Assembly (NCBI GenBank): GCA_964578525.1
Contig: CAZODG010000003.1
Span: forward strand, 1-36,101
Reading direction: 5' to 3'
Length of the DNA stretch: 36,101 nucleotides
From: an uncultured Actinomycetota bacterium
GTDB taxonomy: Bacteria; Actinomycetota; Humimicrobiia; Humimicrobiales; Humimicrobiaceae
Shown here: piece after piece, positions 1,808-4,512 of the stretch
Numbering within the stretch: position 1 is the stretch's first letter
Layout: each line of letters starts with the position of its first letter
Notes under the pieces: model-generated
What the model was told of the DNA's origin: nothing
Databases searched by the model: none
What the model saw: the letters and a program-made list of their open reading frames with translations, nothing else
Position numbers and translations under genes: made by a program

Positions 1808-2439
1808 GGTTAGTTCTACTCGGATCTCCCGGTGCCGGAAAGGGGACACAGGCAAAAATAATTTCTGAGAAATTCGACATACCCCATATTTCAACAGGAG
1901 ATATCCTGAGACATGAAATAAAAAGGGGATCTGAGTTAGGAAAAGAAGCAGCCGGATTTGTCGAGAGCGGGAAGCTGGTACCGGACAGAATAATAATAGA
2001 AATAATAAAGAATGAAATAAGCCCGGGTAAATCAAAGAATGGATTTTTAATGGATGGTTTCCCGAGGAATTTGAAACAGGCAAAAATGTTTTCAGATTTA
2101 CTGGACAAGCTTGGAATCGGGCTGGATAAAGTGATCAATATAAATGTGAGTAAAGACGAGATTATAGACAGACTCGGCAAGAGAAGGTCATGCAGTGTTT
2201 GTAAAAGTATATTCAGTATCGGCAATAACGATAAAGATCCTAAAAAGTGTCCAAAGTGTAATGGCGATTTGATAGTGAGAGAAGATGATAAAAAAGAAGT
2301 CATAAAAAACAGGCTGGATGTATATGAATCAGAAACCAGGCCGCTTATTGATTTTTATGCTGATAAAGGAATGCTTGTAAATATTGATGGTTTCGGTGAA
2401 GAAAAAGAAATAACTAAGAGGATTTTAGAAGTTTTATGA
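1804..2439 (+). CDS. adk: Adenylate kinase with 4-Cys zinc lid
   Basis: P-loop GSPGAGKGT, HISTGDILR, DGFPR; lid CSVC...CPKC. Confidence 0.99.
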   Translation: MRLVLLGSPGAGKGTQAKIISEKFDIPHISTGDILRHEIKRGSELGKEAAGFVESGKLVPDRIIIEIIKNEISPGKSKNGFLMDGFPRNLKQAKMFSDLLDKLGIGLDKVININVSKDEIIDRLGKRRSCSVCKSIFSIGNNDKDPKKCPKCNGDLIVREDDKKEVIKNRLDVYESETRPLIDFYADKGMLVNIDGFGEEKEITKRILEVL

Positions 2440-3203
2440 TAATATGCAAATCAGCAGATGAAATCGGAATAATGCGTAAAGCTGGTAAAATTGTAGCTAA
2501 AGTTTTTTTGAAAATAGAGGAAATCTTAAAACCCGGTATAACTACCGATTATATAGATAGGATTGCAGAAGAGACCATAATAAGCGAAAGGGCTGTTCCT
2601 GCTTTTAAGGGTTACAGGGGGAAACTCAGTAAGAAGCCTTTTCCAAGCACTATCTGTATATCGATCAACGAAGAAGTGGTCCACGGTATTCCGGGCAGAA
2701 GAGTTATAAAAGACGGAGAACTGGTTTCTATTGATGTCGGTGTAAAAATTGACGGTTTCTACGGCGATGCCGCCCGGACCTATAAAGTAGGGAACATCAG
2801 CAATACGGCCGAAAGGTTATGGAATGCTACCAGGGAAGCACTGGACATGGCAATAGGAAAATGCATCTCCGGAAATAGATTATCGGATATTTCGAACGTT
2901 ATTGAAAATAGAGCTGAAGCAGAAGGATTTTCGGTAGTTAAAGATTTTGTTGGTCACGGTATAGGAAGGGATATGCACGAAGATCCCCAGATACTGAATT
3001 ACGGACCTCCCGGACAGGGCCCGATTCTAAAACAGGGTATGGTTCTGGCTATAGAGCCCATGTTTAATCAGGGCACCAGTGATGTCGAAATATCGGGTGA
3101 TCTGTGGACCGTCGTGACTATGGATAGGAAGCTTTCCTGTCACTTTGAGGATACAGTGGCGATATGGGAAGATGGTCCTTTGATATTGACCAGGTTGACA
3201 TGA
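2436..3203 (+). CDS. map: Methionine aminopeptidase type I
   Basis: Motifs CISINEEVVHGIP, IDVG, GDAART, GHGIG..MHEDP and AIEPM; canonical position after adk. Confidence 0.99.
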   Translation: MIICKSADEIGIMRKAGKIVAKVFLKIEEILKPGITTDYIDRIAEETIISERAVPAFKGYRGKLSKKPFPSTICISINEEVVHGIPGRRVIKDGELVSIDVGVKIDGFYGDAARTYKVGNISNTAERLWNATREALDMAIGKCISGNRLSDISNVIENRAEAEGFSVVKDFVGHGIGRDMHEDPQILNYGPPGQGPILKQGMVLAIEPMFNQGTSDVEISGDLWTVVTMDRKLSCHFEDTVAIWEDGPLILTRLT

Positions 3204-3222
3204 GTTTTTTAAAAGAAATTTA

Positions 3223-3251
3223 TGGACATACCGGGGGTTTTTTGATAACCT
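3223..3251 (+). promoter_or_regulatory. Putative housekeeping-sigma promoter for the infA-alpha operon
   Basis: TGGACA (3223-3228), 17-bp spacer, TAACCT (3246-3251) with extended TG at 3243-3244. Confidence 0.5.
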
Positions 3252-3300
3252 ACGTATTTGCGCTATTTTTACATTGAAATATTAGCATGGGGGTTCAATA

Positions 3301-3522
3301 ATTTCTAAAAAAGAAGAAATAATAGAAGCCGAAGGAACTATTTTAGAAGCGCTTCCAAATGCTATGTTCAGAGTGGAGCTTGATAATGGCCACAGGGTAC
3401 TGGCACATATTTCAGGTAAAATGAGGATGCATTATATAAAGATTCTACCCGGTGATAAAGTTAAAGTTGAGATATCGCCATACGATTTAAGCAGAGGAAG
3501 GATCACTTTTAGAAAAAAGTGA
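3301..3522 (+). CDS. infA: Translation initiation factor IF-1 (ATT start; missed by the ORF track)
   Basis: Translates as (M)[72 protein letters not shown]. In-frame TAG at 3283-3285 upstream, with no ATG/GTG/TTG between it and the conserved N-terminus. SD-like GGGGGT at 3289-3294. Confidence 0.97.
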
Positions 3523-3590
3523 TTTATGATTGAAATCCGGATTTAAGGTTTTATTAGATGGGAAGAAGATTTTAAAAAGAAGGAATAAAA

Positions 3591-3704
3591 ATGAAAGTTA
3601 AACCATCGGTTAAAAAAATATGCAAGAGTTGCAAAGTTATAAAAAGGGAAGGGAAAGTCATTATTATTTGTAAAAATCCCCGCCATAAACAGAGACAGGG
3701 TTAA
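3591..3704 (+). CDS. rpmJ: 50S ribosomal protein L36, zinc-binding type (missed by the ORF track)
   Basis: [37 protein letters not shown], with CxxC...C....H ligands. Confidence 0.99.
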
Positions 3705-3716
3705 GGAGGTTTTTAA

Positions 3717-4091
3717 TTGGTAAGAATTTCGGGTATTGATGTACCAAACGATAAACATATATGTATAGCTTTGACTTATATTTTTGGTATCGGCAGGTCA
3801 AGAGCAGAAGAGATTCTGGAAAAACTAAATATTGGCAACAGTATAAAAGCCAAAGATCTCAGTGAAGAGGAAATAGTAAAAATAAGGGAATATATAGAAA
3901 ATAATTATACAATCGAAGGAGATCTTAGAAGAGAAATTAGCCAGAATATAAAAAGGTTGATTGAAATTAACTCTTATAAAGGGATCAGGCATAAAAGAGG
4001 TCTGCCGGTCAGAGGTCAGAGAACCCATACTAATGCCAGGACAAGAAAAGGGAAGAGAAGAAGCGTCGGCATTAAAAAAAGTCAGGCTTAA
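3717..4091 (+). CDS. rpsM: 30S ribosomal protein S13
   Basis: Motifs ALTYIFGIG and RHKRGLPVRGQRTHTNARTRKG; TTG start after SD AAGGAGGT. Confidence 0.99.
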   Translation: MVRISGIDVPNDKHICIALTYIFGIGRSRAEEILEKLNIGNSIKAKDLSEEEIVKIREYIENNYTIEGDLRREISQNIKRLIEINSYKGIRHKRGLPVRGQRTHTNARTRKGKRRSVGIKKSQA

Positions 4092-4113
4092 GTAAAAGTT
4101 TCAGGAGGTAAAT

Positions 4114-4512
4114 TTGGCAAAAAAAACCAGTGGTAAAAGAAAAACAAAAAGCAAAGAAAGAAAAAACGTACCTTACGGGATTGCTCATATTCAATCTACT
4201 TTTAATAATACTATTGTTAATATAACCGACTTGAATGGCAACACTATTGCATGGGGCAGTGCCGGAGGGCATGGTTTTAAAGGTTCCAGAAAAAGTACTC
4301 CGTTTGCTGCGCAAATAACGGCAAATGCAGTAGCAAGAAACGCCCAGGAACATGGAGTCACGAGAGTAGATGTAAGAGTAAAAGGTGTAGGTTCCGGCAG
4401 GGAAACTGCTGTGAGGTCCCTTCAGGCAGCCGGACTGGAAATCGGAAGTATAATAGACGTAACCCCTGTACCTCATAATGGCTGTAGACAGTCAAAAAGA
4501 AGAAGGGTGTAA
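4114..4512 (+). CDS. rpsK: 30S ribosomal protein S11
   Basis: Motifs [22 protein letters not shown] and [11 protein letters not shown]; TTG start. Confidence 0.99.

Follow-up and report, generated by a model that had tools for sequence, protein, structure and literature searches.

A class-wide AUU, AUC or AUA start of infA in the Humimicrobiia: a probable brake on IF-1 synthesis and a possible link to IF-3 activity

The window analysed here is a 36,101-nucleotide stretch of DNA (contig CAZODG010000003.1 of assembly GCA_964578525.1) from an uncultured bacterium of the actinomycetotal class Humimicrobiia, whose genome is represented by a 1.2-Mb, 82%-complete assembly of 115 contigs with 37% G+C. 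It carries infA, the gene for initiation factor IF-1, as a single copy (one match in the genome) within the usual map-infA-rpmJ-rpsM neighbourhood, where rpmJ and rpsM were recognised by motif and the neighbours were named from a reading of their translations (Table 1). The open frame of infA comprises 78 codons, and the only ATG, GTG or TTG in it is the ATG at residue 22. Between the TAG that closes the frame upstream and the ATT with which, as we argue below, the gene very probably starts, there are only the codons CAT GGG GGT TCA ATA; the ATT is followed by TCT AAA AAA GAA and the frame ends with TGA at 3520-3522. The distance from the Shine-Dalgarno (SD)-like run to the ATT is 6 nt if counted from GGGGGT and 7 nt if counted from GGGGG. 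The product scores 130.1 bits against NCBIfam TIGR00008 (cut-off 61.15), with residues 4-72 aligned to profile positions 1-69 of 69 and hence to its full length, and PF01176 is precomputed for all of the listed IF-1 relatives. A start at the internal ATG, which would give an ORF of 52 residues, was rejected because 21 conserved, profile-covered residues would be lost. With 97 nt between the map stop and the ATT, the two genes are not translationally coupled.

Table 1. Features of the infA locus, with positions counted along the window
Feature	Position	Strand	Basis or remark
Methionine aminopeptidase-like gene (map), upstream neighbour	2436..3203	+	ORF list; named from reading of the translation
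-35-like hexamer TGGACA	3223..3228	+	Alignment of map-infA spacers
Extended -10: TG 3243-3244, one base, TAACCT 3246-3251	3243..3251	+	Alignment; promoter function inferred
Putative 5' leader, about 42-44 nt if the transcript starts 6-8 nt after the -10	3258..3300	+	From the position of the -10
In-frame TAG, upstream closure of the infA frame	3283-3285	+	Direct reading
Mini-ORF ATG GGG GTT CAA TAA, spans the SD, judged incidental	3287..3301	+	Direct reading
SD-like GGGGGT	3289..3294	+	Five G's at 3289-3293, T at 3294
Probable infA start codon ATT	3301..3303	+	ATH at the aligned position in 82/82 class loci
infA coding sequence, 73 codons and TGA	3301..3522	+	TIGR00008 profile match
First canonical in-frame codon, ATG at residue 22; rejected as start	3364..3366	+	ORF list; inside the conserved domain
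rpmJ (L36), next gene, ATG start, internal control	3591..3704	+	70 nt downstream of infA

Read letter by letter, the locus bears out the first-pass annotation of this DNA, which had described an infA frame closed by this TAG and lacking any ATG, GTG or TTG up to the conserved N-terminus, with the ATT placed 6 nt from GGGGGT. Contigs from four public lake-water runs cover positions 3277-3344 at a depth of 3-5 and match them letter for letter, without indels; these runs belong to four studies, one of which is possibly the source of the window itself, and the comparison is one of independently assembled contigs rather than of raw reads. The base at 3303, singled out for confirmation in the same annotation, is T in the contigs of all four runs (again contigs, not raw reads). 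A sequencing error at the ATT or in the G run was therefore rejected, as the contigs of the four runs agree and relatives keep the codon.

The class was sampled through 87 species genomes, 80 from family f1 (to which the window's genome belongs), two from f2 and five from f3. infA was found in 84 of them and could be read at its 5' end in 82, the two others (G021 and G062) running into a contig end at residue 21. The aligned start codon is ATT in 69 loci (f1 and both f2 genomes), ATC in 8 (genera g5, g10 and g28) and ATA in 5 (all of f3), while ATG, GTG or TTG stand there in none; T, C and A interchange at the third base in several genera and G never appears. An SD-like motif precedes this ATH codon (H being A, C or T) by 5-9 nt in all 82 loci, with spacings of 5, 6, 7, 8 and 9 nt in 1, 19, 40, 17 and 5 of them. 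In 72 loci no in-frame ATG, GTG or TTG occurs between ATH and the nearest upstream in-frame stop, and in the remaining 10 there are 14 in-frame TTG or GTG codons upstream, none of them with an SD. The stop can be very close: TAG immediately precedes the ATT in L136 and a stop sits one codon further up in L012, L131 and L139. Downstream of the ATH, codons 2-20 evolve as protein, with synonymous variation in the Lys, Glu and Ala codons and with Ser2 encoded by TCT, TCA, TCG or AGT depending on the genus; upstream of it neither length nor frame is kept among the loci.

Taken together, the ATH and SD in every locus, the close upstream stops, the protein-like codons 2-20 and the profile match beginning at residue 4 strongly support the initial proposal that infA starts at AUU, and on these comparative grounds AUU is very probably the true start. 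The alignment of relatives' 5' regions for ATT or ATA starts, by which that proposal was to be judged, came out in its favour, with ATG at the position of 3301 in 0 of 82 loci. Other genes of the same cluster behave differently: wherever rpmJ was found (73 loci) it starts with ATG, and rpsM has TTG (22) or GTG (2) in 24 of 24 class loci. As ATH for infA, ATG for rpmJ and TTG or GTG for rpsM are each constant, every gene holds to its own type of start codon, and ATG is not being lost across the board. Judged by its distribution, the ATT start of infA is old and class-wide and its conservation is beyond chance; it is quite likely that selection has kept this rare start. Apparent non-ATG starts are also seen in the window at secY (GTG 545), rpsM (TTG 3717), rpsK (TTG 4114) and rpoA (TTG 5213), all of them highly expressed genes.

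Outside the class, 166 infA loci were compared (4 phylum relatives, 78 named genome records, 4 further loci and 80 metagenome contigs, the last taken from the matches listed for protein P0059 as query at 72-92% identity; L028 was left out), and an ATH start was found in 0 of these 166. In 155 of them a script located a canonical codon within the expected distance (ATG 112, TTG 31, GTG 12). The other 11 comprise two with ATG just beyond the distance window (L047 and L059), one that runs off the locus, one with an apparent homopolymer frameshift (L079) and seven metagenome loci with CTG behind an SD (L251, L291, L303, L304, L310, L312 and L319). In L079 (CP091729.1, a named Clostridiales MAG) ATG GCA AAA opens one base out of frame in an A run, and the missing start is probably an assembly homopolymer error. 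The closest named records among the genome matches are 'Actinomycetota bacterium' MAGs with 96% and 93% identity.

The CTG loci were followed up with the IF-1 of one of them as query against 401 phylum genomes. Among the best 30 loci (L355-L384, none from unpublished genomes) CTG stands at the aligned infA start in 17 of the 29 that could be read, in families f70, f26, f34, f75, f77 and f78. All 17 are preceded at 5-9 nt by an SD-like motif, and in 10 of them the frame holds no canonical codon between CTG and the preceding stop. The sister loci L359 and L360 have GTG where CTG stands in relatives. In E. coli, CUG belongs together with AUU, AUC and AUA to the codons against which IF-3 discriminates. 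A second lineage with such a start, at 17 of 29 readable loci among the best 30, supports the notion of a general pressure.

Alignment of the map-infA spacers revealed a conserved element of the form T[AG]GAC[AT], exactly 17 nt and TAnnnT in 71 of the 82 class loci, every one of which also has TG at a fixed place within the 17 nt. We infer that this element is an extended -10 promoter; its -10 ends 49 nt before the ATT, and it is followed by a conserved CTACNTATTTGCGCT stretch. With a promoter in this spacer, infA would head a transcript running into rpmJ, rpsM, rpsK, rpsD and rpoA. A consensus promoter scan gave three promoter-like sites against 2.2 expected, the 3223/3243 pair not being among them, and a terminator scan found none. 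Words resembling CTAC..TTTG.CGCT also occur upstream of infA in some Coriobacteriia records (L040 and L050). For the leader itself, Rfam at E values up to 10 returned only two chance-level matches in 2900-4200 and none in the leader. A conserved fold hiding the SD was considered and rejected, since alifold gave an energy of 0.0 on 67 distinct leaders, that is, no conserved structure; single-sequence folds are close to the means of shuffled sequences except for that of the window (-14.6 against -9.5, sd 2.6).

Is infA alone in this genome in its choice of start? We scanned for an SD and ATH without a canonical codon for at least 12 codons, aligned the products to NCBIfam and read the genes in loci L232-L241. 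In seven products the match to the family profile sets in within the first seven residues counted from ATH: L21 (ATT, with the next canonical codon 21 codons downstream), YchF (ATT, 41 codons), RsmI (ATC, 86), NadE (ATA, 39), a dTDP-glucose-dehydratase-like enzyme (ATT, 71), an ABC transporter (ATT, 38) and a PIN protein (ATA, 63). Their genes lie in the genome (G000) at C5:7125 (+), C60:6346 (-), C85:3680 (+), C1:46299 (-), C34:10900 (-), C16:12561 (-) and C81:4591 (-). RtcB, a MATE transporter and an acetyltransferase were ambiguous in this check. At least eight genes besides infA, several of them serving translation, need an AUH start in this genome, which amounts to roughly 1% of its genes. 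Cruder genome scans are noisy: over all frames the ratio for ATH behind an SD is 1.2, and in a crude scan of 903 long ORFs 9 ATH starts were observed against 4.2 expected, about twofold.

Two of these genes were followed through the class. For rplU, all 29 loci that could be read, from five genera, start with ATT (30 were fetched and one was not matched); for ychF, 25 loci could be read, of which 21 have ATH and 4 have ATG or GTG. Two general causes of relaxed start choice were examined and rejected. An unusual initiator tRNA is not at hand, as it has the normal three G-C pairs in the anticodon stem (the incomplete genome yielded only 23 tRNAs). Loss of RsmH, which raises AUU initiation 1.8-fold in E. 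coli (PMC2831307), does not apply either, as rsmH is present in 83 of 87 genomes. infC, too, uses AUH starts in the class: of 30 loci, many have ATT, ATC or ATA immediately behind an in-frame stop. In the window's genus (G000:C56, locus L121; also the relatives L182, L184, L193, L198 and L199) a strong SD, AAGGAGGTG, is followed at the usual spacing by TTC or TTT; there is no ATG, GTG or TTG, and the first ATT and ATA are met only some 24-30 nt past the SD. In other genera of the class the ATT, ATC or ATA of infC sits at normal SD distance.

What could such a start mean for the cell? Descriptions of how IF-1 levels are controlled deal mainly with transcription. The features of the locus suggest that translation of infA would begin at AUU 3301, positioned by the GGGGG(T) SD 6-7 nt upstream, and that the mRNA is probably transcribed from the conserved extended -10 promoter in the map-infA spacer; the initiator tRNA would read AUU and the product would begin Met-Ser-Lys-Lys-Glu. 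Selection across this whole class of Actinomycetota would have maintained the rare start. As AUU, AUC and AUA are disfavoured by IF-3 with the help of IF-1, synthesis of IF-1 would be held below that of the co-transcribed ribosomal proteins, so that the AUU start, as far as can be read from sequence, probably throttles it. By analogy with infC it may also tie IF-1 synthesis to IF-3 activity: synthesis would most likely go up when IF-3/IF-1 activity per ribosome drops and down when this activity climbs, and infA output would move in step with that of infC, which is AUH-started in the same genomes. The four-codon uORF would play no role. As a whole, this explanation (an AUU start, a limit set by its weakness, and IF-1 synthesis responsive to IF-3 and IF-1) appears to us moderately likely; for its most specific element, a real factor-dependent feedback on infA, we put the chances slightly below even.

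The closest known system is infC itself, in E. coli and many other bacteria. There and at infA here, an initiation-factor gene has AUH behind an SD as its sole possible start, and this start is phylogenetically conserved, here while other genes keep canonical ones. The infC case differs in being one of autoregulation, while infA here is known from sequence alone, and also in the factor concerned, as IF-3 is the discriminator and IF-1 a helper. Discrimination against AUH codons is exerted by IF-3 supported by IF-1 according to PMC5499595 and PMC2831307, the former wording it as 'with the support of IF1'. As IF-1 only helps in discrimination, any loop on infA would run mainly through IF-3. The loop is made plausible by the results of He et al. 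2017 (PMC5499595), in which AUU or AUA was put into the naturally AUG-started infA of E. coli: the engineered AUU-infA mRNA was translated, with lower activity and competitiveness than the AUG form had, and in E. coli extracts its translation was almost halved or more than 60% lower with excess IF-3. In the infA of this class AUH is natural and conserved, in contrast to that construct. In the same work (PMC5499595) AUA functioned almost like AUG in rich-medium E. coli extracts, so that family f3, with its ATA, may have no weak start. The presence of AUH at eight or more other genes means that the codon alone is no sign of feedback and weakens the case for a device specific to infA.

A natural non-AUG start that lowers translation is also found at chloroplast infA, where UUG is functional and where, in Chlorella, replacing UUG by AUG is reported to give a 300-fold gain (PMC9845219, citing Hirose et al. 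1999); this much would be shared with the present case. The chloroplast UUG is, however, a canonical bacterial start accepted by IF-3, which AUH is not. A more distant parallel may lie in eukaryotes. There, eIF1 is autoregulated through the poor start context of its own mRNA. Both eIF1 and the infA product are start-fidelity factors with a poor initiation signal of their own, although the factors and the domains of life are different. With these likenesses in hand we would describe infA here as an infC-type weak-start design placed on a second initiation factor; of the elements first proposed, the start stands up, the uORF falls and the loop is plausible.

That the uORF does not hold follows from comparison of the region around the SD. 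The mini-ORF exists just as the first-pass annotation had it, with the SD-like run inside, its ATG at 3287-3289 and its TAA at 3299-3301 sharing its last A with the first base of the ATT (TAATT). The annotation had gone further and made reinitiation from it part of the design, and this proposal failed. A functional uORF would imply a start at ATG 3287 and then either reinitiation at the AUU, to which the shared stop/start base seems well suited, or a -1 slip on GGGGG, which would bring the ATG into frame with infA; a second genus (g25; L150, L151 and L153) has similar mini-ORFs that end 1-2 nt ahead of ATH, which speaks in the same sense. Yet the exact form is present in 2 of 82 class loci (L001 and L003) and a similar ATG mini-ORF spanning the SD and ending no more than 2 nt from ATH in 9, namely the three of g25 and L001-L005 and L013 of the window's own genus, about what chance would give, so that the alignment check for conservation of the uORF turned out negative. 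An ATG lies within 30 nt upstream of ATH in 21 of the 82 loci and is missing from that range in 61. It is fused to the SD in 6 of 82, which is close to base composition, as this needs only 'AT' before the G run, an event with a frequency of ~0.1 at 37% G+C. Sister genomes within the window's genus have ACG in place of the mini-ORF ATG, and in most relatives it is replaced by ACG, GCG, CTG or CCG, with the G run often being GGAGG. The ATG, which overlaps the infA SD, has no SD of its own either: the 20 nt before 3287 contain no purine-rich SD-like run. A programmed -1 frameshift on the G run was rejected for its part because the combination of upstream ATG and slippery run is not conserved. Given the near-chance frequency, the ACG in sister genomes and the missing SD, the four-codon uORF is most likely incidental, a by-product of ACG/ATG polymorphism beside the SD, and we hold a role for it to be very improbable. 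A comparable layout occurs at rplU, where ATG is fused to the SD (ATGGAGG) before the ATT in 16 of 29 loci (L204-L229, genera g1 and g3), about 10 of the 16 having a 3-codon mini-ORF that ends 1-2 nt before the ATT; the likeness between rplU and infA may come from shared ancestry and an A/T-rich spacer.

The main rival to the explanation that we favour is a fixed tuning, in which AUH merely sets a low, constant efficiency and keeps IF-1 below the ribosomal proteins of the same transcript, with no feedback through IF-3 or IF-1. The position of infA right behind the conserved promoter and ahead of rpmJ, rpsM, rpsK, rpsD and rpoA would fit this well, as would the AUH starts of many unrelated genes in the genome, and a start type that is constant gene by gene (ATH for infA, ATG for rpmJ, TTG or GTG for rpsM) is what fixed tuning predicts. 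It runs into difficulty with IF-3: if the factor resembles that of E. coli, any AUH start is IF-3-responsive, going by PMC5499595, so that fixed tuning needs an IF-3 that does not discriminate, while AUH starts of infC are kept in the same genomes. We consider it unlikely, even as the strongest of the alternatives. A weaker one is neutral tolerance, whereby the lineage would accept AUH readily at any gene, such codons would drift in and out and infA would be just one neutral instance. At least nine genes of this 1.2-Mb, 82%-complete genome do need AUH, and ychF, with ATH in 21 of 25 loci against ATG or GTG in 4, attests to some turnover. Drift of this kind is hard to reconcile with the constancy of infA (ATH in 82/82), rplU (ATT in 29/29) and rpmJ (ATG in 73/73), with a crude scan in which ATH is only about twofold above expectation (9 against 4.2), or with a normal initiator tRNA and RsmH in 83 of 87 genomes, and we regard it as improbable.

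If the favoured explanation, with selected AUH starts and factor-responsive IF-1 synthesis, is true, the class-wide AUH and the separate CUG lineage would extend factor homeostasis through the start codon, of which infC is the one textbook case, to a second initiation factor. A still broader picture may be drawn, speculative and on the unlikely side in our own estimate: Actinomycetota would at least twice have put infA under codons rejected by IF-3 (AUH here and CUG in at least six other families), and infC and, in this class, rplU, ychF and rsmI would join it in an IF-3-titrated set of genes that reports and corrects the ratio of initiation factors to ribosomes, as a counterpart to autoregulation of the eIF1 type.

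Part of what is described here is already implicit in databases. Proteins that are 88-95% identical to the IF-1 of the window carry NCBI names including Candidatus Hydromicrobium sp. and Candidatus Humimicrobiaceae bacterium, and 23 of the best 120 database matches are 73-residue proteins named IF-1 by NCBI; the 73-residue product flagged as the window's own (P0003) is also in the database. P0013, P0019 and P0096, with 73 residues each, begin M-S-K-K-E and must therefore have been called from ATH, so that with the 73-residue NCBI entries of relatives an AUH start was implicit in the annotation. In the literature that we searched the class-wide AUH start of infA is undescribed: no report came up of a bacterial infA that naturally starts at AUU/AUH or CUG, and nothing on start codons in Humimicrobiia or Hydromicrobium. 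Another 12 of the best 120 matches (among them P0004 and P0059) are 75-residue calls starting M-D/N-I-S-K-K, here compared as proteins, and a canonical codon two positions further up may therefore exist in some relatives beyond the 82 class loci; among those 82 only L021 has one there, a TTG 1-2 nt after the SD. Other gene callers give IF-1 lengths of 67-122 residues among the same 120 matches. Callers confined to ATG, GTG and TTG mis-call the essential infA, and likewise about 1% of the genes of this genome.
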